Source: Dictyostelium discoideum (lineage: Eukaryota). Taken from it: DNA of 64,000 bases. Each line of letters opens with the position of its first letter. The first letter of the stretch is position 1. The notes beneath the pieces are model-generated. The model worked only from the letters and a program-made list of their open reading frames with translations, was not told where the DNA came from and did not search any database. The DNA lies in the NCBI GenBank assembly GCA_000004695.1, contig CM000151.3:3488001-3552000 (forward strand), given 5' to 3'. Below, piece after piece: positions 17,655-42,327 of the stretch. Position numbers and translations under genes: made by a program.

Positions 17655-19927
<2,273 letters not shown>

Positions 19928-20571
19928 AAAAAAAAATAATAAAAATAAAAAATAAAATTAAATTTCAAATTTTTTTTTTTTTTTTTTTTATATATATTTT
20001 TTTATTTTTTTTTAGGGTACTTTATGATAAACTTCAAAACAACTAGGATTCATAGGTTTGCCATGTTGGCATTCAAATCTTGTTTGAATTTTGCAATTTG
20101 GACGACATTGGAATTTTTTAGAGGTATTAAATGGGGTGATATGTAAAATGGTCACCACATGTATCTTTTCTCAAAGAATTGTTTTAGAAGTTCTGATAGG
20201 TACTCAAGATAGTCTATGGGGTTATTTTTTTTTTATGTATTAAATAACTATATTCAATATAAACATTCTTCAATATTGAAAACCCACCATTTATATGATT
20301 TATGAGAATGGCTATACATTTGAGCCAATTTGTTGAAAGTAAATATAGAATAGAATCATTATTCCCATTACAAGCAAATATATACTCATCAATAGAATAT
20401 ATTTGGCTTGGTGAAATCAATGATTGGGTGTTTTTTTCAAACAAACTCAAAAAATCTCAAATATTATATGTTAATTTAGGTATTTTATAATTTGTAATTC
20501 GTGTATATCACATGTTAAAATTTAAAAAATTTATTTATTTTTATTTAAAAGAAATAAAATTATTTATTTTT

Positions 20572-21483
20572 TTAAATGGATGATCCACTTCCTGTACCAC
20601 TTCCACTTGCACTTCCACTATTACTACTTCCACTATTACCACTTCCACTATTACTACTTCCACTATTACTTCCACTATTACTACTTCCACTATTACTACT
20701 TCCACTATTACTGCTTCCACTATTACTACCAGATGCACTACCAGATGCACTACCAGAAGCACTACCAGATGCACTACCAGAGGATGTTGAACAACCACTA
20801 CCAGATCCATAAAAATCTAAATCAACACTAACACCACATTGATTTGTATTGCCAATATATTGTTTCATTGCTGGTGAAGTCCAACCACCAAATTCATAAA
20901 AAGCGGTATCGGAAAAAGATGGATTATCATCATAATGAGCATACCAAAGTGGATATTGACTTAGAGTTGATAAATTACCAACAGTTTGTGGCCATTCTCC
21001 TTCACTACTGTATACACCTACTAGAACACCAAGACCTTGTGCAGTTTCAACAGCTTCTTGAACATAATCGGCATTATCACTCTCTGCTCCCCAACAACCA
21101 TCACATTGTTCAACATCAATCCATAACATATTGAAATTGATACCATCGGATTTTAAACTAGAAACTAAACTTTGAATTGCACTTGATGCTGGATAATTAC
21201 CATCACATTCACTACATAAAAATGCATAAAGATCAATATTATCGAAACCAGCTTGTTCTGCTGCCGATACAACAGATGAAATATTTGAATTATATTGACC
21301 ACCTCCTGACCACACTTGAATTATAACTCTTTGATTATTACTAGCTAAACATGACCATTGAGAATCTGAAATTCCAACTGAAATCTCTGATGAGAAATCA
21401 ATGGCACATTCACCACTGACGAAAATAACAATAGATAAAATAATACTTGATATTATTAAAAAAATATTATTCATTTTATTCAT
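20572..21483 (-). CDS. Secreted GH25-type (Entamoeba/Chalaropsis-type) lysozyme-like protein with a C-terminal (Gly-Ser-Ala/Asn)n tail
   Basis: Signal peptide MNKMNNIFLIISSIILSIVIFVSG. The GH25 fold pattern is present: VIIQVWSGGGQY...AGFDNIDLYAF, MLWIDVEQ, PLWYAHYDD, GGWTSPAMKQY, VDLDFY. Tail is SGSASGSASGS...SNSGSSNSGS. Confidence 0.55.
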   Translation of the reverse strand: MNKMNNIFLIISSIILSIVIFVSGECAIDFSSEISVGISDSQWSCLASNNQRVIIQVWSGGGQYNSNISSVVSAAEQAGFDNIDLYAFLCSECDGNYPASSAIQSLVSSLKSDGINFNMLWIDVEQCDGCWGAESDNADYVQEAVETAQGLGVLVGVYSSEGEWPQTVGNLSTLSQYPLWYAHYDDNPSFSDTAFYEFGGWTSPAMKQYIGNTNQCGVSVDLDFYGSGSGCSTSSGSASGSASGSASGSASGSNSGSSNSGSSNSGSSNSGSNSGSSNSGSGNSGSSNSGSASGSGTGSGSSI

Positions 21484-22355
21484 TTTTTAAAATATGTATA
21501 AAAATAAAAATAATTAAAATTTGGGTGTGATTTAAATAGTTTTTTTTTTTTTTTTTTTTTTCAAAAAAAAAATTCTAAAATATCTAAAAATATCACAAAA
21601 TATCAAAAAAAAAAAAAAAAAAAAAAATATCTAGAGAAAATTTTAAAAAAAAAAAATTAATATATTAAAATTAAAATTTTAAAATATTATTATTTAAATT
21701 ATCCTAAATTTTTAATTATTTTAAAACAAGTCCCTGGTGACTTTACCAATATTAAAAATAAATTTTAATTAAAAAATAATATTTTTTTTTTAGTTTTAAA
21801 ATTTGATTTTCTTTTTTTTTTTTTTTTTTAATAAAAATCGATGGAAAATTATTTTTAATATAAACAAAACCAATTTTATTAAATTAAAAAAGTAAATTTT
21901 GTTAAATAGTTTGAAAAAAAGGTGGAACAATTGTAACATGTTCAAATGTTTCATTTATTATAATTTTTTTTTTTTTAATATTGATTAATCACTTTTTAAC
22001 TATTAAATCAAATATTCAGTAATTTATAGGATTATAATCCTACACATACCGAATTTCTCAAATTCTGTAGCTCTATTAGACATAGAATTCAAAGACCAAG
22101 AATCTAGGCAATCAATAAATCCAAAAGAAGAGAAGAGACAATAAGAGCTAAGGATACATCCCTCAAATTCATTTTGAAAAAAAGATACTATTATTTTTAT
22201 TGTTATTTTTTTTTTCAGTTTTAAAATTAAATCAATATTTTTTTTTTTTTTTTTTTACCTGTGATCAGACCTTCAAGGAATGTCCTTGTGTCTTTTCGGC
22301 GGTGTTTGTTAAACGGTTTTATTTTTATTATTCAATTGTATTAAATTTTTTAAAC

Positions 22356-22365
<10 letters not shown>

Positions 22366-22430
<65 letters not shown>
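22366..22430 (-). repeat. Poly(A) tail, about 65 nt, of the TRE3-like element (T-run on the + strand)
   Basis: A homopolymer lies directly after the ORF2 stop. Confidence 0.6.
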
Positions 22431-22435
22431 ACTAC

Positions 22436-25400
22436 TTAAATTGGAAGAGGGTTCGGAGCTGCTGGGGTTTGCCAGGCTTTGTTGAATTTGTATTTGTGAA
22501 GATCTTGATTGGTGTTTTTTAGTATTGCTTCGTCGTGTTTGATTTTCTTTAGTGTGATGAATTTTTCAGTTTCGATGAGATTTAGTAATTCTGTTTCTAT
22601 GACCTTTTGCTCGAATTTTGGCTCTGGTTTGCTTTCATCAGTGTTGAACAATTTGTGACAGATTATCTTCCATAATTGGTGTGCTATTATTCCTATGAGA
22701 TTGGGGAAGATTCTCTCAGTTCTGTTGTATTTTGATATGTCTAAGGTATCCATTGACCATCTTTGGATTTTGATGAATGATAATTTGTTAACTGTTGATA
22801 TGATGGTTTTTTCAATATCTAGGATATCTTGGCATAGAGTGAAGAGGTGAGAATAAGGGTCTCTGAATAGGTGGCCACAGATCTTGCATCTGGTGTCTCT
22901 TTCGTGGTTGATACCTGGAAGTGATCTTGAGAAGAATCTGAAGAGGGTGTTTCTACCTTTTTGGTGAGAAATGCTGTTGATGTTTATGAATACTTTGGGT
23001 ATTGCTGTGTTGTATCTCACCGCCCATAACTTCTGCCATTCTGTTCTTCTTGGTGTTGGGTGTCTGTCTTTGATCATGAGTTCGTAAATTTCTTTCAGTT
23101 TTAGTGGTTCATCATTGTCGTTTCTTATACAGTCTGGAAGTTCATTTATCTTTGGATGGTTTTGGTAAAATTTGACTCTGAATACACCCCAGTGTCTGCA
23201 CATATCGTTGAGGGTTGAAGTGTGGGCTTTTTTCTACTTAATTGCTCCATGTACCATTCTTGTAAGGTATTGTTGTTGTTGTTGTAGTTGTTATGGAGTA
23301 GCCTGTTCATGTACCAGATTTTGAATGCTATATGTCTTAGTTCTATATCCCATAATTTTATGCCTCCTTCTTTCCAATCTGCATATGCTCTGTCTATTTT
23401 CATCATAGTTTTGTATTTTCTCTCTTCTGTATATGTATTCTTAACTGAGGAGAATAAGAACCATCTGGTCATGTTATTGATTTCCTCAATTTGTTCTTCA
23501 TTTAGATTATCCATGTATTGATGGTATGTTAATTTGGATAGAACGTATGTTTTGAGAATTGTCATCTTTGCCTTCATCGTTATTGCTTGTGATTTCCATT
23601 TGATTAGATTGTTTTTCATTTCTTGGATTAAAGTGTTGTATTTTGAATTTAAACCTGTTTTGGTGAAATTGAGGCCAAGATATCTTTCTGGGACTGTACT
23701 CTCTTGGAATGGTAGATCGTGTGGTTTATCTCCTATTGCTATCATTACTGTTTTCTCTTTGTTTAACGATGATGACGTTGCTGAGCAGTACTTTTGGATT
23801 TTAGTATTAATTTTCATTAGTTCTTCTGTGGAGTTTGTAAAGGTTGCTATGTCGTCAGCAAATGCAGTGAGTTTTAATGATTTGGAATTTGGTAGAGTGA
23901 AGCCTTTGATTGTATTATCATTGATGATATCTATTAGAAGTGGTTCTAAAACTAGAGCAAAGATTGTTGGTGATATTGGGTCTCCTTGTTTTGTTCCTGT
24001 TCTGATTGTTATTCCATTGACTAAAAAGTCGTTGATCTTTATTTTGTTTTTAGTATCTTTGAGTAGGTTTAGTAGGATCGCTGTGAATTTTGGGGGGATA
24101 CCAATATGCTCTAATGTTCTTGTGATACTCTTGTGGCTGATTGAATCGAATGCTTTGTTAAAATCGTAAAAGGTAATGAGTGTATTGTTCTTTCTTTTGT
24201 TACTTATTTCTATTACTTCCTTCATGATCTGAATATTGTCTTGGATGAACCTGTTTGGAACAAAGCCGTTTTGAAATTTGTTGATAATTTTACTGGTGAT
24301 ATCTAATAATCTACTGTTGAGAATTTTGCTTAAAATTTTGTAATCTGTATTGAGAAGGGTGATTGGTCTTCTATTTGAAATGTTTAGTTCATCTCCTTTT
24401 TTGAATATTGTTGTTATTACTCCTTCTTTGAATTTTGTGGGGATTTCTTTCTTATTTGTGAGGAGGTCGTTGAAAGCTATAGTCAATATTCTTGCTATTG
24501 AGTTGATGTGGTACTTGTAGAATAGTGCATTGATACCGTCTAAACCTGGAGATTTGTGGATACTTGAAGTTTTGATTGCTTTGGTCACTTCATGTATTCT
24601 TATCGGTCTGTCTATCTCGAGTTTCTTGATTAAATCAACGTCTACTTCCCATTTTTCTAATAACTTCTTGTGGGTTTCTTCGTTATCTTCTTTCTCTTCA
24701 TATTGATCTTGATAGAATTCAACAAATCTTTTTGCTATGTTCTCTTTATCTGATATGGTCTTATTATCTTTATCTTTTATTTGGAATATTGATTTATCTT
24801 TGGCTCTGGATTTAAGGATACTTGTGAGGTATTTGCTTGGTGTTTCTTGATGCAGGTGGAGTTTTAATTTTATATCCCATGCTTTTACCTTTCTTTCTTC
24901 TTCTAATATTCTACTTATTTCTTCATTGAGTTCTTTTCTCATCTTTGGAATGATATCACTATTTCCAAGTAATTTGTGGATTACGTATTTTCTTTTGTTC
25001 TTTTCTTTCTTTATTTTGTTTTGTTCTTTTTTTAAATAATCTCTGATGACATTATTTTTAAATTTCGTCCATTCCTCCACTGATTTGATCTTATCTTTGT
25101 TCTTACTGATTAATTCTGATAACCCATCATGTATATGTTTGTTGTTGAGAATTTCTTTACATAATGTCCAAGGGAGTCTTTCTAGTTTGGTTGTTGTTGT
25201 TGTTGTTGTTGTTTCTCTGTTGGTTTGTATTGTGATTGTGATGGGAAAGTGATCTGATTTGTTGAATACTGTGTTGTGGACTACCAGTTTTGAATTTTGG
25301 TTTAGTAGTGTTGGATGACAGTAGATTCTATCTAGTCTCTTCATTGATCTTGGAAATGTTGGAGTGTTTTCTTCAATACCAGTATCTAGTAGCATGTCTT

Positions 25401-25881
25401 GGTCTATTATTTTACGTAATTCAGTACCGAAGAAGCTGTTGCAATCGTGGTTGTTATTGAAGTCGCCTGCTATTATTTGATGGTTGATTGAATTATATTT
25501 TTTAAACAGTGATTTTGAGTTGATTATGAAGGTGTTTCTTTCAGATATAGTCGCTGGAGCATTGATCAATAATATGTTGATAGAATTAAAGGAATTGTAT
25601 TTAATTGATAGTATTCTACCATCATCGTCTTTGAAGTTTATTGATATGTGGCCTTTTCTTGTATCTCTATTTTCTATTGCTATGCCAGTTCCTTTACCTG
25701 AACCATGATCTATTCTTTCAAAGTTGAACATTGTTTTGTGGTGGTTGAATCCATTGAAATTAGTTTCAGTTAGGAGTGTTAATTGAGTGCCAATTCTTTT
25801 TATCGTTTCTTCTGTTTTATTCTTAGCGTTGGTTGATTGATTACCTCTGCAGTTCCATAGTAATAATTTTAATTGTTCCAT
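22436..25881 (-). CDS. TRE3-like ORF2: apurinic-type endonuclease + reverse transcriptase + C-terminal CCHC-like domain. It is split by an apparent frameshift at 23146-23203 into a 911-aa ORF and a 255-aa ORF.
   Basis: RT motifs FYDFNKAFDSISHKSI, QGDPISPTIFALVLEPL, AFADDIATF. C-terminal CKICGHLFRDPYSHLFTLC. The endonuclease N-terminus starts LLLWNCRGN. Confidence 0.7.
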
Positions 25882-25950
25882 TATTTTCTAATACTACTGG
25901 CAATTGGAAACTTGGTACCATTGCTTGTAGTAATTTTATTGATAGGTTTT

Positions 25951-25985
<35 letters not shown>

Positions 25986-26762
25986 TTTGTTTAGGTTGTT
26001 GATTGTTGTATTGCTTGTTGGTAATTGATGTGTGATTGTTGTTGGTGTGGTTGTTGTTTGTGTGGTTGTTATTGGTGTGGTTGTTATTGGTGTGGTTGTT
26101 GATGCATTAGTTGTTGGTGGAGTTGATGGTATTGGTTTAGTTGTATTTGTAGTTGTTGGTTGTTGATTTTTATTACTTGTGTTTTTTTTTTTTCTAACAT
26201 CTCTTATTTCTTTATTGTTATATTCAGAGATGAAGGCTCTTATTGGATGCTTACTACCTTTTATAGCATCAATGTTTGTTTTAATGATTGAGATATCATC
26301 TTCTTTGTTAAATAATAGAATGCATGAATATCTAATCACATCTGGTAGCATTACTATGTTGCATTCATCTATTAGTAATGGCTCCAATCCCCAGTTTTCT
26401 TTTACCATTTGATTGTTTATTTTTTTTATTATGTTTTTTGTAAATGTGTAAAAGTGGACATAGTGATATCCTGGGGTGTAAAGTATGAATTTTTGCAGTG
26501 GGAAATCTTCATACTTGAAAGTGCTGTAACACTCGTGTAATAATGTGAATTTTTCTTTTAGTATTCTACCAAATACTGTTATACCTTTTTGTCTTCTGAC
26601 AATGTTAAGAGTACCATTAACTATGAAATTATCTATTAATTTTGTTGAATTACTATTTAATTCCAAGGTATGTGGGTAGAATAACCTTATTTGAATAGTT
26701 TTTTTATTTAACTCTTCTTCGCCTAAGTTGAGTTCACCTTTAAGTTTATCGAAAAAATTCAT
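25881..26762 (-). CDS. TRE3-like ORF1 (293 aa) with a Thr/Pro-rich C-terminus
   Basis: First ORF of the element. Its stop overlaps the ORF2 ATG (TAATG). Confidence 0.6.
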
Positions 26763-27060
26763 TTTTTTTTTTTTTTTTTTTTTTTTAGATTATTTTTATT
26801 ATTTTTTTTTTTTAATTATGTGTTTATATAAAAATATTTTTGATTTTTATTTTTATTTTTTTTTTTCTTTATCGTTTATTCAGATCTATTCTTATTCCCA
26901 ATCCAAGGATTGAAGGAATTAGTGTGTAGAGTAGATAGATTGAATGTAGTTGATGTTAGATTGATGGATATGTTTTTCTGTATCTAGTATCCGTTTGATC
27001 AACTGTAGGCTTTTAATTTTTTTAAAATTAAATCAATATGGAATTTAATTCTTTAAAATA

Positions 27061-27071
27061 GGAATCGAACT
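27061..27071 (-). promoter_or_regulatory. External B box (ex-B box, GGTTCGAnTCC-like) about 30 bp downstream of tRNAi-Met copy A
   Basis: Minus-strand AGTTCGATTCC. A downstream ex-B box is typical of Dictyostelium tRNA genes. Confidence 0.55.
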
Positions 27072-27100
27072 AGCGACATATTCTGTATAATTTTAAAATT

Positions 27101-27172
27101 TAGCTTCTCTAGGTTTCGATCCTAGGACCTCGAGGTTATGGGCCTCGCACTCTACCCCTGAGTTAAGAAGCT
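27101..27172 (-). tRNA. Initiator tRNA-Met (anticodon CAU), copy A
   Basis: A1:U72, C33 in the loop CCCAUAA, T-loop GGATCGAAACC and discriminator A. Near-identical to the human tRNAi-Met core (GGCCCATAACC...GAGGTC...GGATCGAAACC...GCTA). Confidence 0.85.
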
Positions 27173-27492
27173 GTCGATTCAAGCTAACGAATCTTATGAT
27201 TTTTCTGTAATAAAGTTACTCTATAAAATTAATAGATATTAAATATGCATATTACATTACTAATTATAGTTGACACACATTTAAATAATATAATAATAAT
27301 AATAATAATACTGTCAACTCATTATAAATAATATAAATACTAAAGAATAATTTTATAAACAATATTGAATATTATAAATATAAACTAATATTAAATAAAG
27401 ATAACAAAGTATTATTCAATTATATAATTATTAATTATATATTTATAAAGCTAACAAGCTTTATTACATTTCATATCAAATAACTAAATGTT

Positions 27493-27646
27493 GTCTGAAG
27501 TGTTCTAAAAAAAAAAAAAGGTAAACCAACCCCTCTTTTAGGGACCCTGTAAAAAAAAAATAAAATAAAATGAGATCTAGCATCTCAAGGAGAAGCAAAT
27601 AATTGCGTTATCCAATTCAAAAAAAAAAAAAAAGTCTGAAGTGTTC
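27493..27646 (+). mobile_element. Solo insertion of a roughly 100-bp A-tailed retro-module flanked by a perfect 13-bp target-site duplication GTCTGAAGTGTTC (27493-27505 and 27634-27646). It is either a SINE-like element or a TRE5 C-module-only copy.
   Basis: Structure: TSD, A13, GGTAAACCAACCCCTCTTTTAGGGACCCTG..GAGATCTAGCATCTCAAGGAGAAGCAAATAATTGCGTTATCCAATTC, A15, TSD. Other copies lie at 36352-36457 and 29805-29903, behind TRE5-like ORF ends. Confidence 0.7.
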
Positions 27647-27950
27647 CGGGATGTTTATGGTCATGAGTTTCGATTTCCAGTTGTGACTGAATTTTTCGAG
27701 TCTTCTTTTTATTGATGCGGTCCTATTGATTGACTCTCGGTTATCAGTGCATCTTAGTTCTTGACGTAGTTGCTTTTCTACTATCTTTCTTGTTCTATCC
27801 CATTCGGCATCTCTCGCTTTTTTGATTTTATGAATTATTTGGTTCTCTGTTATTATTGTAGTGTTATCGTTGAATTTTATTTGGTTTCTTCTGTACCATA
27901 TCGATTCCATAATGGCTGTCTTTTTTTCCAAGATATTCTAATTTGGAGAA
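27647..27950 (-). mobile_element. Fragment of a TRE5-like ORF2 3' region, interrupted by the module insertion
   Basis: The encoded peptide ...AEWDRTRKIVEKQLRQEL...EKFSHNWKSKLMTINIPEHF is homologous to the ORF ends at 29877-30200 and 45729-46247. Confidence 0.5.
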
Positions 27951-28019
27951 AAAAATTTGATAAATCCTGAACATTCACTGAATGAATAGTGCATTTTTGT
28001 TGTTACAGATCCTTTCTCA

Positions 28020-28110
28020 AACAGGGATGAAAACTATATATGTTAATATATGTCGCTTATTCATTGGCGATTATTACATTTTCATCATTTGGATATACAA
28101 TCTTAAGAGA
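28020..28110. repeat. Inner inverted-repeat arm, about 85% identical to the reverse complement of 29440-29530
   Basis: cagggatgaaaactatatatgttaatatatgtcgcttattcattggcgattattacattttcatcatttgg versus the reverse complement of 29461-29530. Confidence 0.55.
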
Positions 28111-28291
28111 GATATACAAAAACAACCAACAAAAACAACTTCTTTTTGATTATTTCATTTTTCATATAAAAAGACTTAAAAACAAATAAATAAAGTCACT
28201 TATTTAAAAAAGCCATCTTTTTATTTTATTTTAATTTATTTTTTTTTTTTTGAAAATTTTGATTGGTGTAAACTTCTATTGGGGTTGGCGC

Positions 28292-28330
<39 letters not shown>

Positions 28331-28403
28331 TTTTTTTTTGCTCAAACTATTATATTTTGTTCCCTTTAAAAATGAAATAAAAAAGAAATATTGAAAAAAC
28401 GAA

Positions 28404-28502
<99 letters not shown>

Positions 28503-28599
28503 TAATTATAGCATCAGCATCAGTTAAAGGTATTGAATGGGATGAAATTCTATACAATTGAAGCATTGGATACTTGTTTTGTCATCAGTATTACCAAAA

Positions 28600-28878
28600 T
28601 TATAATGACTTGAACCATAACTTAAATGGAATATTCAATTGATCTCCATTTTTTTTTGATTTTTTACCTCTAAATGATTCTCTGGGATAACGTTTACAGT
28701 GATCCATTATAACTTTATTAACATTAACTTGTTGATGAATACTACTACAATGTCTGGAGTAGTGTGTTTTAAATTGCCCACAATCCAAACAATAACTATC
28801 TTCATCATAAAGATCATCTTCAATTGAAATAGATTTAACTTCTTTTTTAATTAATTGTTCATCTTCTTCCTTTATCAT
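28600..28878 (-). CDS. Hypothetical small (92 aa) acidic protein with a C-x2-C...H-x4-C zinc-finger-like motif, at the centre of the palindromic region
   Basis: The ORF has non-low-complexity composition (YCLDCGQFKTHYSRHCSSIH...DHCKRYP). No homolog recognised. Confidence 0.3.
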   Translation of the reverse strand: MIKEEDEQLIKKEVKSISIEDDLYDEDSYCLDCGQFKTHYSRHCSSIHQQVNVNKVIMDHCKRYPRESFRGKKSKKNGDQLNIPFKLWFKSL

Positions 28879-29439
28879 TACTTTAATACAAAAAATACAA
28901 ACTCCAAGATCTCAATTATAAAATATTGATTGTGAACACATTATAGTACATACTTTACATTTAATTAAATCTTTAAAACTTCTAAAAATAAAAAAAAAAA
29001 ATAAAAAAAAAAAAAATTAATATGTGTAAATATTTAATAAAATATATTATATTTATATTAAAATAATATTTAAAATTTATATTATATTTATTTTTAAATA
29101 ATAATTAATAAAAAAAAAAAATTTTGAAAATATATAAAAAAAAAAAAAAGAGTTATTGCAATAGAAAATTATGATTTTTTTTAAAAAAAAAAAAAAAAGG
29201 TATTTTGGTGATCTAAATTTAAAAAATTCGTTTCTTTATAAAATTAATTTTAGTATAAATAGTTTAAATAAAATAAAGATAAACATTATTTTTAGTAGTA
29301 AAAGAGATAAATATATTATATATATAAATTATTATTATTATTATTTCTGTGTGTTCACGTATATTATGTATTTTATACAAGTTTCAAAATGTTTTTTACT
29401 TTTATTAATTTTTTTCTTTTTTTGTGAATCTTGAATAAT

Positions 29440-29530
29440 GGAAATTATTATATATTCAAATGATGAAAAATGTAATAATCGCGAATAATTAAGCGACATA
29501 AATTTATATTTAAGTTTTTATCCCTGGTAA
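29440..29530. repeat. Inner inverted-repeat arm, partner of 28020-28110
   Basis: See 28020-28110. Confidence 0.55.
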
Positions 29531-29793
29531 AATACAAATATAGAAATAGATCTGTAGCTGAAAAGACGTTAACAAATACAAGATTCTTACTTTATTCTCA
29601 GAAATTTTAGTAAAATTTATTTTAGTATAAATAGTAAATAAAATAAAAATTCATTGTTGTTTTATTCCAAATTGTGCACAAACTAAACTTATAATTTTTA
29701 TATAAGAGATATAATATTATTTTTTTTTTATTATTTATTATTAATTATTTCTGTGTGTTCAAGGGTCAAATTATTAAAAGTATTTAATAGGAA

Positions 29794-29901
29794 TTTTTTT
29801 TTTTGAATGGAATAACGCAATTTTTAGTTGCTTCTTCTTGAGATATAACTCATTTTATTAATTTTATTATTAGATATTACAGGTGCCTTTTAAGGTTGTA
29901 T

Positions 29902-29954
<53 letters not shown>

Positions 29955-30202
29955 TTGGGGGGTGTAGAGTGTGTTTAGTGACGTAATATATTTGTTGAGG
30001 TTTGATGGTAGTGCTACTGTGTGTAGTGGTGAGTTCCAGTGTTTGCTAAATCTTTCGAGTTGTAGGGAGATGATGTTTTTGAATTTTTTTGTTTGTTCGT
30101 TGTTGGTTGCTTTTTTTTCTTGTCTGATTAGTTTGTATATGTTGTTTTTTGTTTTTCCCAGGCTGCTGTTATTTAATAGAAATTGGAATACGACGTTCAT
30201 TA
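29794..30202 (-). mobile_element. 5'-truncated TRE5-like 3' fragment. Layout: ORF2 end, A-tract (29904-29951), diverged C-module copy (29805-29903), A-tract.
   Basis: ORF end ...ERFSKHWNSPLHTVALPSNL. The module copy GAATGGAATAACGCAATT... is about 80% identical to the 36352-36457 and 27519-27620 copies. The 5' end abuts the boundary of inverted-repeat arm B at 30203. Confidence 0.55.
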
Positions 30203-30625
30203 CACAAATGTAATAAAGCTTGTTAGCTTTATAAATATATATAATTAATAATTATATAATTGAATAATACTTTGTTATCTTTATTTAATATTAGTTTATA
30301 TTTAATATTCAATATTGTTTATAAAATTATTCTTTAGTATTTATATTATTTATAATGAGTTGACAGTATTATTATTATTATTATTATTATATTATTTAAA
30401 TGTGTGTCAACTAAAATTAGTAATGTAATATGCATATTTAATATGTATTAATTTTATAGAGTAACTTTATTACAACAAAATCATAAGATTCGTTAGCTTG
30501 AATCGACAGCTTCTTAACTCAGGGGTAGAGTGCGAGGCCCATAACCTCGAGGTCCTAGGATCGAAACCTAGAGAAGCTAAATTTTAAAATTATATAGAAT
30601 ATGTCGCTAGTTCGATTCCTATTTC
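30203..30625. repeat. Inverted-repeat arm B, partner of 27056-27477
   Basis: See arm A. Confidence 0.8.
30508..30579 (+). tRNA. Initiator tRNA-Met (CAU), copy B
   Basis: Identical to copy A in reverse complement. Confidence 0.85.
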
Positions 30626-30659
30626 ATTTATTCAGAATCGAACTAGCGAGAACTTATAA
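30610..30659 (+). promoter_or_regulatory. Pair of inverted ex-B boxes (CTAGTTCGATTCC ... GAATCGAACTAG), 31 and 66 bp downstream of tRNAi-Met copy B
   Basis: A perfect 12-bp inverted repeat separated by 16 bp. Arm A retains only the first box, because the TRE3-like element begins after it. Confidence 0.5.
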
Positions 30660-30889
30660 TTATCCAAACGGTTTTAAGAATTTATTGAAATTAATTTTTA
30701 TTATTCATGAACATGGTTTAATAACATTGATCAAAAAAAAAAAAAAAAAAAACCAATAATATTAATACAATATTTTACAATTAAAATTTTTAATTTGATT
30801 ATTTAAATTGAAAAAAGAATAATAAATTTAAATTTTAAAATTCAAAAATATTAAAAAAAAATTGATATTTTAGATAAACTAATTAATCA

Positions 30890-30928
<39 letters not shown>

Positions 30929-31163
30929 ATTTTAATCAACTGTATTAAAATATTTTTAATTTTTTAATATAAAATTAAAAAAATATAATTTTCTTTAGTT
31001 AGATTCCTCAATAATAATTATAGCTTTTAAAAAGATAAATAAAAAAAGAAATATATAAATTAAAAGACTAAACATAAAAATTAAATTATAAAAAAGAAAA
31101 TATTTTATTAAATAATTATTAAATTATAAAAATAAAATCCAAACAAAAAAAAAAAAATTGATT

Positions 31164-31196
<33 letters not shown>

Positions 31197-31294
31197 TTAA
31201 ACCCCAAAAAGTAAAAAGATTTTTTTTTTTTTTTTGTTTTCTTTTAAAAGTTTGAGATTATTTTAAAATTGGGAAATTTCACTTGCCCCCAATA

Positions 31295-31326
<32 letters not shown>

Positions 31327-31559
31327 TTAGTTTTTAAAAAATCAAATCTTTGCAAAAATAAATTTAAACAATGATTACTTTTTTGTCAATTTACAAAAAA
31401 AATTAAAAATAATTAAATTTAAAAAATAAAAAAAAAAAAAAAAAAAACCAATTAAAAAAAGAAAAAGTATAAAAAGAAAAAAAATTTTTAATTAAAATCA
31501 TTAAATTGAAAAATTAAAATTTCATACAAATTATCTTTTTAAATAATAAAATTTATAAA

Positions 31560-32321
31560 ATGTCTACCCAAGGTTTAGTTCAACTTATCTCAAATGCTCA
31601 ATGTCATTTAAGAACCTCAACCAATTACAATGATGTCCACACTCAATTTAATGCTGTTTTAAACTATAAAAACAAAGGTACCAATACTATTGATGGTTCA
31701 GAAGCTTGGTGTTCATCAATCGTAGATACCAACCAATACATTGTTGCTGGTTGTGAAGTTCCACGTACTTTTATGTGTGTTGCTCTCCAAGGTCGTGGTG
31801 ATCATGATCAATGGGTTACATCATACAAAATCCGTTATTCATTAGATAATGTTACCTGGTCTGAATATCGTAATGGTGCTGCTATTACTGGTGTAACTGA
31901 TCGTAACACTGTTGTTAATCATTTCTTTGATACTCCAATTAGAGCTCGTTCAATTGCTATCCACCCATTAACCTGGAATAACCACATTTCATTAAGATGT
32001 GAATTCTACACTCAACCAGTACAAAGCTCAGTCACTCAAGTTGGTGCAGATATTTACACTGGCGATAACTGTGCCTTAAATACCGGTTCAGGTAAACGTG
32101 AAGTTGTTGTCCCAGTTAAATTCCAATTTGAATTTGCTACTCTCCCAAAGGTTGCCCTCAACTTTGATCAAATCGATTGTACTGATGCTACCAATCAAAC
32201 TCGTATTGGTGTTCAACCAAGAAACATTACCACCAAAGGTTTCGATTGTGTTTTCTACACTTGGAATGCTAACAAAGTCTATTCATTAAGAGCTGATTAC
32301 ATTGCTACTGCTTTAGAATAA
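31560..32321 (+). CDS. dscC: Discoidin I chain (N-terminal discoidin/F5-8 type C domain plus C-terminal H-type lectin domain), first gene of a tandem pair. The symbol is tentative, based on the literature statement that two discoidin I genes are closely linked.
   Basis: A 253-aa [27 protein letters not shown]...[10 protein letters not shown]. Recognised as discoidin I from memory. Confidence 0.9.
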
Positions 32322-32666
32322 ATTTTTAATCTTATTATTAAAATTGTAATTTAATTTTTAATCAAATTTAATAAAAAAAAAAAAAAAAAATCCAAATTCA
32401 AGATTTTGTTTATTATATTTTTTCCATTTCTAAACTATTATTATTAAATTTGAAATAAAAAATGATAAAAAAAAAAAAAAAAAAACTGTATTTTTATAAT
32501 ATCCAATCTAAATTAATTATCGTCAATCTTTAAGGAATAAAAACTTTTTTTTTCATTGAAAAAACAATAAAAAAAAAATAAAAAAAATCAATAAAAAAAA
32601 AAAAATCATAAAAAAAAAAAAGATATAATTATTTTCAATCATAAAAATTCCAAATTTACAAATTTA

Positions 32667-32704
<38 letters not shown>

Positions 32705-33044
32705 TTTAATAATCAAACCATTACAAAAAAAATTTACAATCATTTTAATTTTATTTTTTTTTTCACACCAATTGCGACAGCTAGGAAAAATCTGAAAAGT
32801 GGGGTGATTTTTATTAAATTTTAAAAAATTTATACCCATTAATTTTTTCAATAAAAATAGTTGGTCATTTTACAAAATTAAAAAATTAAAAAAAAAATAA
32901 ATTAAATCTTTAATTTTAATTGGAAAAAAAAAAAAAAAAAAACTATAAAAAGAAAATATGATTTTCATTTTAAAATCATTAAACTGAAAAATTAAAATTT
33001 CATTTATACAAATTATCTTTTTTTAAATTCAACACACAATTAAA

Positions 33045-33806
33045 ATGTCTACCCAAGGTTTAGTTACACTTCTCGGAAATGCTCAATGTCATTTAAGAAC
33101 CTCAACCAATTACAATGGTGTCCACACTCAATTTAATGCTGCTTTAAACTATAAAAACAAAGGTACCAATACTATTGATGGTTCAGAAGCTTGGTGTTCA
33201 TCAATCGTAGATACTAACCAATACATTGTTGCTGGTTGTGAAGTTCCACGTACTTTTATGTGTGTTGCTCTCCAAGGTCGTGGTGATCATGATCAATGGG
33301 TTACATCATACAAAATCCGTTATTCATTAGATAATGTTACCTGGTCTGAATATCGTAATGGTGCTGCTATTACTGGTGTAACTGATCGTAACACTGTTGT
33401 TAATCATTTCTTTGATACTCCAATTAGAGCTCGTTCAATTGCTATCCACCCATTAACCTGGAATAACCACATTTCATTAAGATGTGAATTCTACACTCAA
33501 CCAGTACAAAGCTCAGTCACTCAAGTTGGTGCAGATATTTACACTGGCGATAACTGTGCCTTAAATACCGGTTCAGGTAAACGTGAAGTTGTTGTCCCAG
33601 TTAAATTCCAATTTGAATTTGCTACTCTCCCAAAGGTTGCCCTCAACTTTGATCAAATCGATTGTACTGATGCTACCAATCAAACTCGTATTGGTGTTCA
33701 ACCAAGAAACATTACCACCAAAGGTTTTGATTGTGTTTTCTACACTTGGAATGAAAACAAAGTCTATTCATTAAGAGCTGATTACATTGCCACCGCTTTA
33801 GAATAA
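33045..33806 (+). CDS. dscD: Discoidin I chain, second tandem gene, about 97% amino-acid identity to the first. Symbol tentative.
   Basis: A 253-aa [43 protein letters not shown].... It differs from the upstream copy at a handful of residues (Q8T, I10L, S11G, D25G, V33A, A238E). Confidence 0.9.
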
Positions 33807-33924
33807 ACAAATAATTTTTTAAAAAATTATTAAAATTGTAATTTAATTATTAATCAATTTTAAAAAAAAATAAAAACAAATAAAATTTAATTTTATTTTT
33901 TTTTATTATAAAACAAAAAGCTTT

Positions 33925-33981
<57 letters not shown>

Positions 33982-36313
33982 GTTAAACATATTTATATTA
34001 ATCAAAAATAATTATCTTTTTTTATTTTATTTTTTGATCAATAGACCAGATTATATAATTATTCTAACAGTATTCAAAAAAAATAAAAAAAAAAAACATG
34101 ATACACCCATAAAAACTAATGTCATAAATTTTTTTTTTTTTTTTTTTAAGGTGAATTATAATATTTATTTTTTCCATAAATTTTTTATTTACAGCAATAA
34201 ATAATTAAAATTAATTTTCGTTTTTTCATTTTTTTTCATTTTCCATTTTATTTTTTTTTTTAATTCCCAAACACTTTTTTTAATTTTTTCAATTTTTTTT
34301 TTTTTAATTCTCTTAACCAAATATCTATATATTTTAAATTTTTTTTTTAAATTCAAATAAATAAATAAATTAAAATGTTTTCAAAAGGAATCAATATAAT
34401 GGGTCACTCTTAAAATAAAAAAAATAAAACAATAATGATAAAAAAAAAATAAAAATATTAGTGTAATAGGAAATTTATGGACTCAGAAAAACAATATATT
34501 TATTTTTGAAATTGTACCCTCTACAAAGAAAAAAAAAAAAATAATCACACAGAAATAAAATAATTATTTTTTTAATTTATTTTTTTCTTTTTTTTTTTCA
34601 AAACTAATTTTTATATGAAATAAAAAAATAAAAGTAAAAAAAAATAAAAAAAAAGGCAACGAACATACACCAGCACCTCATAAAATTACTTTTCACCACT
34701 GAAATTTTTACATCCCTTACTAATTTTTAATTTCATTTTTTTATTTATTTTTTTCTTTTTTTTTTTTTTTCTTTTTTTTTTTTACTTTTTTTTTTGGTTA
34801 ATAAAAAAATAAATAAATAAATAAACAAATAAAAAAATAAATAAATTTTTTGAGTTAATCTATAAAGCAGGTTTAGCAAATGGAGTTTGGTTTTTAATAT
34901 TTTTAGGGGTATCATTGTTGGTAATTTAGGTACAGCGGCAATAATTGATATAGCAGGTTTAGCAAATGAAGTTTTATTTTTAGGTGATCATTATCGATAT
35001 TGGGATTTGCAACATTGGGTAAACCAGCAAAAGTTAATGGTAAAGGACAAATAGCAGAGAATCAAACTAAGTATTAATATGAACCATCATCAGGAGATAG
35101 GAACAAGATGATACAACAACAACAACAACAACAGGTAAAAGAAAAACTAAAGATACAGACAATAGTTCAAATAAAAAAAGAGTGTAAGTTTTATATTTAA
35201 AGATAGACCAATTCGATTACTGGTGACCATTACTTTATAGTGGTATAAGTCAATCATTCTTTTTTTGGTGTATTCCCTCAATTACTTAGTAAAGAATGGA
35301 TTGGTAAAGCTGTGGCTTTTTTTACGATGCTTCTGTTAGTAATTTCGGAGCTTCACCTGGTAAAGGTAAACAAGCTGCAAAGAATTAGAAAAGATTAAAT
35401 ATTTAGAAATGACATGACGTTAAGCTATTAAAGTTACAAAAATGTAAATAATCATAATAAATTAATAAATCAATAAATCAATAAATTAAAAAATAAATTA
35501 ATTAATAAATAAATAAATAAATAAATAATTAAATAATTTTTAAAAAGTACTCTAATTTTGGAATTATTTGTTTTTTTCTTTTTCTTTTTTTGCTCTAAAA
35601 CTTTTTTTTTTCTTATTTTCATATACACTACTTTTATTTTATTTATTAATTTTGTGCAAATAAAATTAACATAAGAAAATACTCGACACACGAGAAATTT
35701 ATTTTATATTATAATTTTTAATATTATGATTATTTTCATTCTTGAAACTTCTTTAAGTGCTTCACGACAAGCCATATCTGAACATTTAACCATCAAATCA
35801 TTCTATGCAGTTTGATTACCTTCATCAAGTGAAGCACCTAAATAACCACTTCAATAAAAACTATTTTATGTATGTTTTGGACACTTAAGAAAAACTACAG
35901 AGTTTATTTTTCAATTTATCACTATACTGCTCAAATTAACTTAATAAATGACTATATTTTTTAGAAAAAAAAAGTAAAAAATAAAGAAATTCATGACTTA
36001 ATAAAGTAAACAGTGAATCAAAAATGTAAACCGAAGTTATTTGAGGCCATGGTGGATCAGTTGAGACGGCTAATGTGTTTATACCTGAACATGTACATGT
36101 AGTATTGTTCTTCTGTTTATAGAGTTTGGAGTTGGTGATTATATGTACACATTATTATTAAAGAATGAAATTCTTGATTTATACCAATCACTAGATAATT
36201 CAGCATTAACACCAAATATAATACAAGGTCATAGAAAATATTTTGAATAATTGATTTTAAAAGCAAAAAAATTATAAGCATCACATGATAAATTATAAAC
36301 ATTACATGATAAA

Positions 36314-36802
36314 TTTTAAACATATGCACAGTTTTTTTTTTTTTTTTTTTTGAATTGGATAACGCAATTATTATTTGCTTCTCCTTGAGATGCTAGATCT
36401 CATTTTATTTTATTTTTTTTTTTTTTTACAGGGTCTCTAAAAGAGGGGTTGGTTTACTTTTTTTTTTTTTTTTTTTTTTTGTTTCGAATTTTGAATTGTA
36501 TTATTACTTTTGATTAAAACATCTTTTTTGTCCAAACTTTTTTCTAAATCTTTTTTTATTTTATCGTCTGGTTCGTGATTGATGTTTATGACGTATTTGA
36601 ATTGTTTTTTTTTTAATTGAGTTTTATCCACAATTTCGCTTATTTTTTGTAGGCATTTGTGTTGCTTAATATTTGTGGTGTTGTTTGTGATTTTCATTTT
36701 ATTTTCTTTCTATTTTTTTTATTTTTCTTTAAAAAGTTAAAAATCTGGAAATTTTCTGATTAACTTGGGTTCCAGGTTTTTTTTTTTTAAACATATGCAC
36801 AG
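36314..36802 (-). mobile_element. 5'-truncated TRE5-like insertion (ORF2 end, A-tract, C-module 36352-36457, A-tract) flanked by an 18-bp TSD TTTTAAACATATGCACAG (36314-36331 and 36785-36802). Its 5' end lies about 50 bp upstream of tRNA-Leu.
   Basis: The ORF end ...DLEKSLDKKDVLIKSNNTIQNSKQ is homologous to 46330-46420. Divergent orientation and roughly 48 bp distance from the tRNA are the classic TRE5 pattern. Confidence 0.7.
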
Positions 36803-36834
36803 GAGTTTGGTGAAAAAATTTTAAACATATGCAC

Positions 36835-36913
36835 GGGAGATTGGTCGAGTGGTTAAGACAATAGATTTAGGCTCTATCCTCCGGGGTCGCGGGTTCGAAC
36901 CCCGCATCTCTCA
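36835..36913 (+). tRNA. tRNA-Leu (anticodon UAG), type II with a long variable arm
   Basis: GGGAGAT acceptor (one G-U pair), D-arm GTCGAGTGGTTAAGAC, anticodon stem-loop ATAGA-TTTAGGC-TCTAT, variable arm CCTCCGGGGTCG and T-arm GCGGGTTCGAACCCCGC. Confidence 0.8.
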
Positions 36914-37440
36914 CATTCTTTTTATCCATTTAAATATCTAGATTTCCCTGAAATTTACCTAATAAGGTTAAATAAAATTAAAAAAAGAATGAGGTCAACC
37001 ACATTAAATTGGTAGGAATTTATTTGAGTTTTTACTATTTACGAATAACATTTATTTATTTGATCTATAATTTCATTTTTTTATATATTAACATTATATT
37101 ATTAAGGTTTTTAAAATTTTATTTATTTTTTTTTTTTTTTTATTTTTTTTTTTTTTTTTGAAACTCACACATAATATTGCATGCAGAAATACAAATTTAA
37201 AAAAAATCCGAATTAACACCTATTATTACTAAAATATCTACATCTAGATCAAGTAAATAATTAATTAATATCAAATAAATAATAATAATAAAAATCATAC
37301 ACATTATATGTGCTCATTTTTGAGTAGCTAATCTAAAGAATCTGGTTAAACTTTATATTGTGTGATACTACTGTATGTTAGTATTAGTTGTGCATGTCCT
37401 TGCATCCACTTTACACTGAATGAATAGTAATCAATGTGGT

Positions 37441-37629
37441 TGGGTCAACTGACATAATTTGCGATATTTGCATGGGAGGTTGGTCAGCTGACATTATTAA
37501 CATTGTTCGCAAGGGAGGTTGGTCAGCTGACATTATTAACATTGTTCGCAAGGGGTAGTTTAGCTGACATTATTAACAATATTGGCATGGGAGGATTGTC
37601 AACTGTCATTATTAACAATATTCACAAGG
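37441..37629. repeat. Minisatellite, about 4.5 tandem copies of a 40-41-bp unit (GGGAGGTTGGTCAGCTGACATTATTAACATTGTTCGCAAG)
   Basis: Direct tandem repeats read in the sequence. It lies immediately upstream of the discoidin pseudogene fragment. Confidence 0.7.
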
Positions 37630-37631
37630 TC

Positions 37632-37770
37632 ATGGTGCTGCTATTACTGGTGTAACTGATCGTATCACTGTTGTTAATCATTTCTTTGATACCCCTATTG
37701 ATGCTCGTTCAATTGCTATCCACTCATTAACCTGGAATAACCACGTTTCATTAAGATGTGATATCTATAG
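37632..37770 (+). pseudogene. Discoidin I pseudogene fragment (about 135 bp of the discoidin-domain coding region, no start or stop)
   Basis: [43 protein letters not shown] matches discoidin residues 106-148 with several substitutions. It is about 90% identical at the DNA level to 31876-32010. Confidence 0.75.
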
Positions 37771-38452
37771 ATTATATAAATTATTATTAATTATTCAAGG
37801 GTCACACATCGTTTATTGATATATCCAAAATAATATAAGTATTCCATAAAGTTAGAATACGAGATTCATTACAATTTGTAAGGTATGCAGTAGTTCTTTG
37901 TTACAATAATTATTTATATTATTAAATTCATTTTCATTTATTATATTTATTCATTTACATTTTTCATTTGTAAATTAGTTTATTTTGTATATTCTTTATA
38001 AAGTTATTATTTTGAGTTTAATGTGCTGACGCTCCAACATAACAAATAAATCTTAATATATCGATATTAAATAAAAAAAAAATAAAAATAATAACTACAA
38101 GCAATAAAATTCATTTTGCCTTAAATTACTTCTTTCCTAGCTTAGCCCTCCCAAATAGTTTATTCGTGATACACAAATTACCTTTTTAAATCATCAAATT
38201 GTTCAATTTTATTTTGTAAATTAACCTTTTTCCATAATCAATCTCAATTGAAGATGGATTACCTCTAAACCAATGTTAATATATATATTATATAGTTTAC
38301 ATTAATAATAAAAATAAATTTATATATAAATATATCATATTAAATATAAAAAAAAAAGAAAATATTAATAATAAAAATTAAATTAAATATTTAATATATA
38401 ATATATTTTAAATTTATACTTTAAGTAAAAATATAAAACCAAACAACAAATT

Positions 38453-38495
<43 letters not shown>

Positions 38496-38532
38496 CATTA
38501 ATTATTACATTTATTGTATAATTTTATTTATT

Positions 38533-40833
<2,301 letters not shown>

Positions 40834-40916
40834 TATAATATTTGTGAGTGAGTGTGTTGTGTTGTGTAAATATATAATACCAGTTTTTGGTTTTTTTTTT
40901 TTTTTTTGGTATAAAA

Positions 40917-40966
<50 letters not shown>

Positions 40967-41157
40967 TAAGGATTCTAGTAATTAATTTGGTTCAAAAAAA
41001 AAAAAAAAAAAAAAATAAAAAAAAAATAAAAAAAATTTTAATAAAAAAACAGTTAAAACCATCTTTGAAAAAGGCTAAAAATTTCAAAAAAAAAAAAAAT
41101 ATTCCATGATATGAGATTTACTTTTTTTTTTTTTGATAAAGAAGATATTTATTTTTT

Positions 41158-41204
<47 letters not shown>

Positions 41205-42275
41205 AAAGGTTTTTTTATTATTATTAATAATCCAACCATAACAATAAAATTTAATCGGTTATTATTAATAAAAACAATCTAAAAAAAAAAAAAAAAAAAA
41301 AATATTGGTAACATTCAAACCAGACACCAAAAAAAAAAAAAAAAAAATTTTTAATTAAAATTTATTTAAATAAATTTTATTTTTCATTTTTTTTTTTTTT
41401 TTCAAACAATAATTTAAATTTATTAATAATTTATATAAATTAAGTATAGATAAATAGAGCACTCAAAAATACACAAAATGATATAAAATTAAAAAAAAAT
41501 GAATGTAATCATTCTGTTTTTTGAATTTTTTTTTTTTTATTTTTTAAAAAATTATCATTCATTTTCAATACTTTCAAAATTATTTTTTTTTTTTTTGAAA
41601 TTTTTTTTATCAATAATAACTGATTTAATTTTATCTATTTTTTAATATGAATTTAGTATAGATAAATAGAGTACTCAAAAAAAAAAAAAAATACACAAAA
41701 TGATATCATCAAATATTTGTCACAAAATTACCATATTATTTTCAGCATGCTGTTTTTAGGGTGAAATTATTTTTTAATTTCTCTTTTATTTTATAACTTT
41801 TTTTTTTTCATACAATCAGATTAAAATAAATTAAAAAAAAAAATAAAAATAAAATAAAATATAATTTTTATCACTATTTTTTAAATTAATTTTTATTTTG
41901 GAAATAATTAAAAGTGATTTTTTTTAGGGGACTTGTCTAATCGGGAAAAAAAAATTAAAATTATTTTTTTTTTTTTTTTTTTTTTATGCAATCAGATCAG
42001 AAATTTTTTACTTTTTTTGGTTTCTCCAAATCGGTGTAGTCTTTTAATAGAAAAATTCTATTTTATTTTTAGTATAAAAAGTAATTTTTTTTTTTTTTTA
42101 TTTCATTCAAAAAAGACAAAGTTATAACTTATAACTTATAATTATATAAAAAAAAAAAAAAAAAAAAAAATATACTTAAAAAAACAATAAAATTGTTATT
42201 AAAAAAAAAAAAAAATTATTTAAATAATTTTTTATATAATTTATTCTTTGACAAAATTAAAGAGGTAATTATTAT

Positions 42276-42327
<52 letters not shown>

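Follow-up and report, generated by a model that had tools for sequence, protein, structure and literature searches.

Transfer RNA (tRNA) genes of Dictyostelium discoideum are described, in a passage of PMC8163159 that cites Eichinger et al. 2005, as occurring in pairs or triplets whose members share an anticodon. Several families of Dictyostelium retroelements, in turn, are placed at defined distances from tRNA genes: TRE5 elements lie 37-90 bp upstream (PMC5006619), with the 5' end facing the gene (PMC5911963), TRE3 elements lie 40-150 bp downstream in the same orientation as the gene (PMC5911963; PMC5006619, Table 1), and Dd_DGLT-A, which has a 265-bp long terminal repeat (LTR), 20 copies and many solo LTRs, formerly known as H3R, lies 13-33 bp upstream (PMC5006619, Table 1). 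Within TRE5, the C-modules of TRE5-A and TRE5-C differ by about 22%, and a 3' B-module is present in TRE5-A only (PMC3159450). Here we analyze a stretch of 64,000 nucleotides of D. discoideum AX4 (GCA_000004695.1, contig CM000151.3, positions 3,488,001 to 3,552,000; hereafter the window, to which coordinates refer unless another locus is named), in which two tRNA-Met genes stand head-to-head within what looks like a large nested palindrome. It appears most likely, with a probability of roughly 0.7, that an old, short duplication, gene conversion and parallel tRNA-targeted insertions together mimic a young nested palindrome at this locus. Paired tRNA genes and tRNA-targeted retroelement pile-ups are both known from Dictyostelium, and the locus exemplifies the two of them; new here are how old the pair is, that it has evolved in concert, and that parallel insertions imitate a large young palindrome.

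A pair of initiator-type tRNA-Met genes

The structure occupies a 10-kb interval, in a window with a G+C content of about 20%, between a gene for a GH25 lysozyme-like protein (20572-21483) and the first of two tandem discoidin I genes (31560-32321 and 33045-33806), the products of which are exactly the discoidin I chains C/B and D of AX4, encoded on chromosome 2. The alignment of arm A (27056-27471, minus strand) with the reverse complement of arm B (30624-30206, the arm being on the plus strand) spans 421 columns at 97.15% identity and contains 5 mismatches and 3 short indels. The original prediction of outer arms that are about 97% identical in inverted orientation is thus borne out, but the inner arm ends, given there as 27477 and 30203, are actually at 27471 and 30206. 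Each arm is composite: about 150 bp, from the ex-B box to position -33, make up the ancient tRNA unit (27056-27205 in arm A, 30475-30624 in arm B), the remaining approximately 265 bp are a solo LTR (27206-27468 in arm A; LTR_b, 30209-30474, in arm B), and 3 nt complete the arm at its inner end.

As predicted, each arm carries a tRNA-Met gene followed by an ex-B box. ARAGORN identifies tRNA-Met(CAT) genes at 27101-27172 (minus strand; tRNA A) and 30508-30579 (plus strand; tRNA B), which are identical in sequence, have a CAU anticodon and a cloverleaf, and point away from each other. The ex-B-like motif TCGCTAGTTCGATTCC is located about 25-30 nt downstream of each gene, at 30604-30619 on the plus strand for tRNA B and, as its reverse complement, at 27061-27076 for tRNA A (minus strand), where it is conserved in all relatives including D. 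citrinum; the B-box-like sequence AGTTCGATTCC, 30 nt after each tRNA gene, is shared by five genomes as well as D. citrinum. The trailers of the two copies differ by a single C/T (27082/30598). Eukaryotic initiator tRNA-Met is marked by the A1:U72 pair, by A54 and A60, and by a run of three G:C pairs at the base of the anticodon stem. Numbered manually in the standard scheme, the present genes have A1:U72 as the end pair of the acceptor stem (AGCTTCT...AGAAGCT), a T loop AUCGAAA with A54 and A60 instead of T-psi-C (GGATCGAAACC in all copies and species) and C33, and the anticodon stem (CGAGG/CCTCG) contains G30:C40 and G31:C39, yet A29:U41, that is, two of the three canonical G:C pairs. Taken together, these features indicate that both genes are of the initiator type.

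Just outside arm B, an additional inverted copy of 15 nt of the ex-B region, GAATCGAACTAGCGA (30635-30649, minus strand), forms a perfect inverted repeat with TCGCTAGTTCGATTC (30604-30618) across a 16-nt spacer. This copy is found in AX4 and in the second assembly L001 (see below), is absent from L005 and L006 (divergent isolates, see next section), and could be a templated insertion or a remnant of another copy.

The pair is older than the elements that surround it

The syntenic GH25-discoidin interval was fetched from other genomes via the neighboring proteins. In D. citrinum, represented by two assemblies (L003 and L009), the interval is about 2 kb long and contains one tRNA-Met gene, oriented like copy A and equipped with an ex-B box; in D. 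dimigraforme (L010) it contains no tRNA-Met gene. Two head-to-head genes are present in a divergent D. discoideum isolate (L006; arms of 185 nt, 96.8% identical) and in D. cf. discoideum (L004; arms of 147 nt, 98.6% identical), and a second divergent D. discoideum isolate, ACTFIR (L005), has two genes in direct orientation, with arms of 128 nt (98.4%) and an inverted discoidin block. The D. firmibasis discoidin locus and one from D. dimigraforme (L007 and L008) are non-syntenic and hence uninformative. All these syntenic relatives lack the arm LTRs, the R-type LTR, the TRE3 and the AX4 spacer content described below, and contain other TRE5 fragments in their spacers.

In every genome, the arm identity stops just after CCTATTT, beyond the ex-B box, and the outer flanks on the B side are orthologous (alignment scores of 63-87 against shuffle maxima of 35-38). 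The common arm boundary and the orthology of the B flanks indicate that the tRNA pair is the product of a single old duplication, which took place before these lineages diverged (by about 10-25% in non-coding sequence) and after the split from D. citrinum. The presence of the pair in L006 and L004 without the TRE3, the TRE5 pieces and the LTR of AX4 implies that those insertions are later. Judged from these comparisons, TREs did not create the duplication, contrary to the proposal that a TRE-mediated rearrangement had made or bounded it. The locus thus offers a compact, phylogenetically dated case of tRNA gene gain, with 0, 1 or 2 copies among related species, and a gain in tRNAi-Met dosage, with one copy in D. 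citrinum versus two here, is a plausible candidate effect.

At the non-tRNA positions of the shared approximately 150 bp, the two arms within a genome are 93-100% identical, whereas the figure for orthologous arms compared between genomes is 56-89%; for AX4, the values are 96-100% between arms A and B, 77-89% against L006 and 56-75% against L004. Both arms of D. cf. discoideum (L004) share a lineage-specific spacer between the tRNA gene and the ex-B box and a compensatory change in the T stem, namely C51:G63, in both copies, where the others have T:A. D. citrinum has A7:T66 versus T7:A66 in D. discoideum, also a compensatory difference that keeps the tRNA fold. Arm identity drops with distance, to 88-89% in the part between -28 and -65 in AX4 and L006. 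A single old duplication with arms that have since tracked each other implies that the arms are kept alike by arm-to-arm gene conversion.

Several further rearrangements are apparent in the relatives. Comparison of L005 (3800-19800) with the window (19000-37000) reveals that L005 has a block comprising tRNA B, both discoidin genes and about 2 kb of further sequence in the opposite orientation to AX4 and D. citrinum, so that its tRNA-Met genes form a direct repeat with a distance of 8.7 kb; TRE5 fragments are found close to the breakpoints, and recombination between retroelement copies in inverted orientation is therefore suggested as the cause. The syntenic interval of D. dimigraforme contains an inverted, divergent pair of discoidin I genes (L010, 8444-10785), and inverted duplications seem to recur at the discoidin/tRNA-Met locus. 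D. cf. discoideum shows several upstream repeats of the 5' portion of a tRNA gene together with its upstream flank, as units of about 40 nt at a tRNA-Ser gene (L002, 8660-9790) and as a 66-nt partial copy at tRNA-Met (L004, 7213-7402); these repeats look like long target duplications that arose from repeated insertions very near the gene.

Solo LTRs and TRE elements in and around the arms

LTR_a (27206-27468, minus strand, 263 bp) and LTR_b (30209-30474, plus strand, 266 bp) both run from TGTAATAAAG to CTTTATTACA, are located 33 nt upstream of tRNA A and tRNA B, respectively, have TG..CA termini with 10-bp terminal inverted repeats, and differ by 2 substitutions and 3 small indels (about 99% alike). 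Their termini, together with the short duplications beside them (see below), are those of a Ty3/gypsy solo LTR, and their length and position fit the published DGLT-A values (PMC5006619), so that they are probably DGLT-A-like solo LTRs; neither the window nor the ten fetched loci contained a further copy. With this anatomy, the arm boundary previously ascribed to the end of a TRE5 fragment is the end of an LTR. LTR_b is enclosed by a perfect 5-bp target site duplication (TSD), ACAAA (30204-30208 and 30475-30479), and LTR_a is flanked by TTTTC (27201-27205) and TTTC (27469-27472). Two adjacent mismatches between the arms fall exactly at the proximal TSD, and the flanks agree within each arm but differ between the arms. 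The version in arm A is uninterrupted ancestral sequence, as in L006 (GAAAAATCAT), and that in arm B includes the last base of the R-type LTR. The difference between the TSDs of the two arms suggests that LTR_a and LTR_b are probably two independent, parallel integrations.

The upstream flank of each LTR contains TRE5 sequence. On the side of tRNA B, fragment Y (29794-30169, minus strand) is a 5'-truncated TRE5 that consists of the end of ORF2 (the second open reading frame, ORF), A48, a C-module and an A-tail, without a B-module; its 5' end faces tRNA B, its TSD of 12-13 nt is TATTTAATAG(G)AA (29781-29793 and 30170-30181), and it interrupts LTR R, a complete R-type solo LTR of about 348 bp without the insertion (29470-30204, minus strand; TGTAATGAACG...GCGATTATTACA). 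On the side of tRNA A, fragment X (27472-28000, the 5' end being approximate; minus strand) is a 5'-truncated C-terminal piece of a TRE5-family ORF2 without a C-module, lies in sense orientation relative to tRNA A, which is non-canonical, and stands in place of the first approximately 250 nt of a second R-type LTR, LTR L. Into X is inserted a mini TRE5-A fragment of 128 bp (27506-27633, plus strand), comprising an A-run, a C-module and A15, with a perfect 13-nt TSD, GTCTGAAGTGTTC (27493-27505 and 27634-27646). When its C-module is compared with the in-window reference, the TRE5-A 3' end near tRNA-Leu (36337-36471), the identity is 92.6%. That reference belongs to a TRE5-A 3' fragment with B- and C-modules (36332-36788), itself a textbook case, located 47 bp upstream of a tRNA-Leu(TAG) gene (36835-36914) in the opposite orientation.

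The C-module of the mini TRE5-A is only 74% identical to that of Y, which by its modules is TRE5-C-like. Given the difference of about 22% between the TRE5-A and TRE5-C modules, the two fragments belong to different subfamilies and represent independent insertions. Their 5' ends are 333 nt (mini TRE5-A) and 338 nt (Y) away from the respective tRNA gene as observed, and 66 and 67 nt once the LTRs are subtracted; after LTR removal, the target edges of both insertions are 53-55 nt from the tRNA gene, and the orientation is correct for both. Because these distances are canonical only without LTR_a and LTR_b, the mini TRE5-A and Y insertions were probably in place before each arm received its DGLT-A-like LTR, which implies that two LTR-free tRNA copies existed at that time.

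The most serious alternative, although we consider it unlikely, is that DGLT-A integrated only once and the LTR was then copied into the other arm by the same gene conversion that homogenizes the tRNA genes, all else being as in the preferred reading. Conversion between the arms is evident here, the two LTRs are about 99% identical in substitutions and share position and orientation, and a double hit by a 20-copy family is improbable a priori (PMC5006619). Copying, however, is difficult to reconcile with TSDs that differ between the arms and are self-consistent within each of them. Furthermore, X in arm A and LTR R in arm B are non-homologous and would provide no distal anchor for a conversion tract once X was present, and the mini TRE5-A within X appears to be older than LTR_a.

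Downstream of tRNA A, a full-length TRE3-type non-LTR retrotransposon occupies 22239-27019 on the minus strand, with ORF1 (25881-26762), ORF2 (23146-25881) containing APE (Exo_endo_phos) and reverse transcriptase (RVT_1) domains, an internal A-run, a 3' module and an A-tail. Located 81 nt from tRNA A in the same orientation, it agrees with the published TRE3 placement in distance, strand, A-tail and TSD. The TSD is an intact 20-nt duplication, TTTTAAAATTAAATCAATAT (22219-22238 and 27020-27039), which identifies the element as a simple later insertion. Its 5' end (27019) is 36 nt away from the end of arm A, the 20-nt TSD plus 16 nt lying between them, and the 5' end of Y (30169) is likewise 36 nt away from the start of arm B, across the first 35 nt of LTR R. 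Thus, the observation that the arm junctions lie close to retroelements holds on both sides, but the ends do not coincide, and the edge of arm B is an LTR. When the sequence beyond the TRE3 (21500-22450) was compared with the region to the right of arm B, only low-complexity matches were obtained.

These data leave little room for a single recent inverted segmental duplication of 416 bp (LTR, tRNA gene and ex-B box), made or bounded by TRE3 and TRE5 around an older palindrome. Such an event would account for the identity of 97% that continues unbroken across the LTR, the tRNA gene and the ex-B box, and for the retroelement ends within 36 nt or less of both arm ends. Nevertheless, L006 and L004 have the tRNA pair without the LTR, the TRE3 and the AX4 TRE5 fragments, the arms end precisely where the LTR ends, the TRE5 fragments are at the canonical distance only with the LTRs removed, and the intact TSD of the TRE3 marks it as a later arrival. 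Approximately 265 bp of each 416-bp arm are a solo LTR with TSDs that are unlike between the arms and consistent within each, so that the arms as a whole cannot readily be read as one recent duplication.

The inner inverted pair and the core

A second inverted pair within the outer arms, about 85% identical, had also been predicted, and the present alignment upholds it: 28022-28101 matches 29526-29447 with 85% identity over 81 nt and a local score of 48, compared with a shuffle maximum of 29. Each half consists of the end of an R-type LTR followed by the same 23 nt. The left half includes the last approximately 80 nt of LTR L (28002-28078, plus strand), which ends ...GGCGATTATTACA, and the right half includes the 3' end of LTR R, which, without Y, aligns over its full length with a solo LTR of about 398 bp located 13 bp upstream of a tRNA-Ser gene in D. 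cf. discoideum (L002). Prior to the arrival of LTR_b, the start of LTR R was 32 nt upstream of tRNA B. Alignment with the arms of L006 maps the 23-nt flanks (28079-28101, minus strand, in arm A; 29447-29469, plus strand, in arm B) to positions -28..-50 of the ancestral arms, and when the insertions are removed from the AX4 arms in silico, the latter become colinear with the L006 arms, with the 23-nt flank at the expected position (score of 15, attained by 0.1% of random windows). The inner pair therefore belongs to the same palindrome, as the nested layout had suggested, and consists of the distal part of the ancestral arms, pushed inward by the R-type LTR, together with the end of that LTR.

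The two inner copies might instead be the terminal inverted repeats of a DNA transposon of about 1.5 kb (28022-29526) that carries a zinc-finger ORF, which we regard as very improbable. Both copies start with CAGGGAT and enclose a small ORF, and in D. citrinum the same sequence forms a perfect palindrome of 83 bp that resembles a miniature inverted-repeat transposable element. However, no TSD is found around 28022/29526, the right copy runs on into the full LTR of about 348 bp that is homologous to the solo LTR of L002, and 23 nt of the similarity are ancestral upstream sequence of the tRNA gene. Moreover, the repeat ends face inward (...ATTACA | TGTAAT...) rather than outward, and no other 1.5-kb unit with such ends and a TSD was found in approximately 190 kb of fetched loci. 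The D. citrinum palindrome (L003, 8716-8799) consists of a 36-nt arm, TGTAATAATCGCGAATAATTAAACGACATAAATTAA, an 11-nt loop and the reverse complement of the arm; it contains the LTR-end sequence seen in the inner pair, with the ends facing outward, and has a possible TSD, TATT.

Between the halves of the inner pair lies the unpaired core of 1345 bp (28102-29446), in agreement with the 1.3 kb described before. This spacer comprises a TRE5-related piece (28109-28194), an (ATT)n microsatellite (28405-28500), the predicted small zinc-finger-like ORF (28600-28878, minus strand), which encodes 92 aa including a CX2CX5HX4C motif, as well as a third partial R-type LTR (29235-29357, minus strand). A Pfam search with the core ORF, X and Y returned no match, and in a tblastx comparison with the TRE5 fragment of L006, carried out with a TRE ORF2 zinc finger in mind, the core ORF was unmatched and X alone matched. 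The only protein matches of the core ORF are an AX4 gene model, DDB_G0273271, and an ORF in a non-syntenic cluster of tRNA-Ser, TRE5 and LTR in D. cf. discoideum, and the spacers of L004-L006 lack the ORF. The most suitable reading is a repeat-derived sequence; it is not a conserved host gene. DDB_G0273271 (125 aa) joins, on the minus strand, the core ORF, part of the X frame (27641-27840) and 12 codons across the ex-B box of tRNA A (27043-27080), with tRNA A inside an 'intron'; the model is thus chimeric and almost certainly a spurious prediction.

Assembly support

The possibility that the structure is an assembly artifact was examined with a second assembly, L001 (GCA_054883475.1), a 3.6-Mb contig of which is colinear with the window over 22394-42384. 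Within 26500-31600, only four homopolymer runs differ between L001 and AX4, and all differences between the arms are reproduced; the same structure with other homopolymer lengths indicates that the palindrome is not an artifact. That the reference contains a falsely assembled inverted duplication, for which no supporting evidence was found although the region is repeat-rich and extremely AT-rich, is thus a practically negligible possibility, the more so as two copies are present in four further genomes.

A model for the origin of the locus

Based on the observed anatomy of the elements, their TSDs, their presence or absence in the relatives and the pattern of arm similarity, we propose a model of the history of this locus. 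One initiator tRNA-Met unit, consisting of the ex-B box, the tRNA gene and approximately 50-65 bp of upstream sequence, would have been duplicated head-to-head in the D. discoideum lineage after the D. citrinum split, at the DNA level, for example by template switching at the tRNA gene, with copy A being ancestral and copy B new. Gene conversion centered on the tRNA gene would have kept the copies nearly identical, and both genes, to which RNA polymerase III (Pol III) binds, would serve as landing pads at which elements integrate at a fixed distance and in a fixed orientation. Such hits on two divergent tRNA genes yield a mirror-symmetric stack of insertions. First, an R-type LTR element would have integrated about 30 bp upstream, pushing the -28..-50 part of each arm inward and thus producing the 85% inner pair; second, TRE5 fragments of different subfamilies and with different TSDs would have inserted independently about 55-65 bp upstream of each gene; third, each gene would have received a DGLT-A-like element 33 bp upstream, which was then reduced to a solo LTR, so that the arms now look 416 bp long; and fourth, the TRE3 would have inserted 81 bp downstream of copy A. 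The order of the insertions is inferred and not directly shown.

Several points weigh against this reconstruction. For a family of only 20 copies, it is a priori unlikely that two independent DGLT-A integrations would share both nucleotide and orientation and leave near-identical LTRs, and the TSD in arm A is imperfect (TTTTC vs TTTC). The assignment of LTR_a and LTR_b to this family comes from structure and published parameters only, and gene conversion is deduced from similarity patterns, not observed. Fragment X, with its non-canonical orientation and without a 3' tail, requires an additional, unexplained deletion, rearrangement or atypical insertion in arm A. Finally, the outer flanks on the A side are too diverged for their orthology to be established by alignment.

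If the model is correct, the age of a palindrome cannot be read from high arm identity, because gene conversion and parallel targeted insertions make an old 150-bp duplication pass for a young one of 416 bp. More broadly, and with somewhat less than even odds, head-to-head tRNA pairs in the D. discoideum complex may be long-lived mini-palindromes whose arms of about 150 bp undergo conversion over species-level divergence and which act as paired landing pads, with elements of one family integrating independently into both arms at an identical nucleotide and orientation (the DGLT-A-like LTR and possibly the R-type LTR). Each such pair would then amount to a naturally replicated experiment on integration directed by Pol III, and local inversions could arise from it (compare the discoidin block of L005). 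The locus also shows how Pol III-targeted retroelements accumulate and remodel the intergenic region beside the discoidin I genes. The understanding of the TRE and DGLT-A mechanisms is unchanged by these findings.

Other features of the window

The tandem discoidin I genes dscC/dscD are part of a duplication (31454-32417 vs 32930-33910; 93.7% identity over 985 bp), and a discoidin fragment of 133 bp (94%) is located further downstream, near tRNA-Leu (37629-37761). Each discoidin protein of the window has two AX4 accessions (EAL70633/EAL70750 and similar). The doubled accessions fit a position of the window within the known large chromosome 2 duplication of AX3/AX4; if so, AX4 would have four copies of this tRNA gene at the two loci. 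Additional repeats include a long inverted repeat near the window ends (2456-4033 vs 54061-52394; 80-90% identity over about 1.5 kb in three blocks, 48 kb apart), a direct repeat of about 2.3 kb (38445-40782 vs 43154-44947; 75-91% identity in several blocks, 4.7 kb apart) and a tandem array with a 72-bp period (11436-12364). One BLAST search, run without the low-complexity filter, returned mostly (ATT)n noise.

Comparison with known systems

Human Y-chromosome palindromes and plastid inverted repeats are homogenized by arm-to-arm gene conversion. The present locus resembles them in that paralogous arms are closer to each other than orthologous arms and in the inversion of flanking sequence seen in L005, but its arms are tiny (about 150-185 bp), the apparently homogenized core is a Pol III gene, and identity decays within tens of bp. 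The yeast Ty3 element and its solo sigma LTRs (PMC6101501, PMC5911963) are a parallel in that a position-specific LTR element inserts on the upstream side of the tRNA gene at a distance of a few tens of bp, has a TSD of 5 bp and is reduced to a solo LTR, although the host and the element family are different and the distance of 33 bp observed here is at the far end of the DGLT-A range.

Within Dictyostelium, the locus is one of the pairs of identical tRNA genes that lie a few kb apart on one chromosome, as far as these are described in the passage of PMC8163159 cited above; in contrast to a recent duplication of that kind, the pair predates the divergence of strains and species and evolves in concert. 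The insertions are like those of other tRNA-targeted clusters, with TRE5 upstream, TRE3 downstream and DGLT-A/H3R upstream, in their distances, orientations, TSDs, 5' truncation, A-tails and C-module (PMC5006619, PMC5911963, PMC3159450), and here too nested insertions shift the older ones away from the tRNA gene. The R-type LTR, at about 350 bp, is distinct from the published 265-bp LTR of DGLT-A, and fragment X is wrongly oriented for a canonical TRE5. A further difference from the published clusters is that the stack of insertions at this locus is a mirror image, produced by two divergent target genes.

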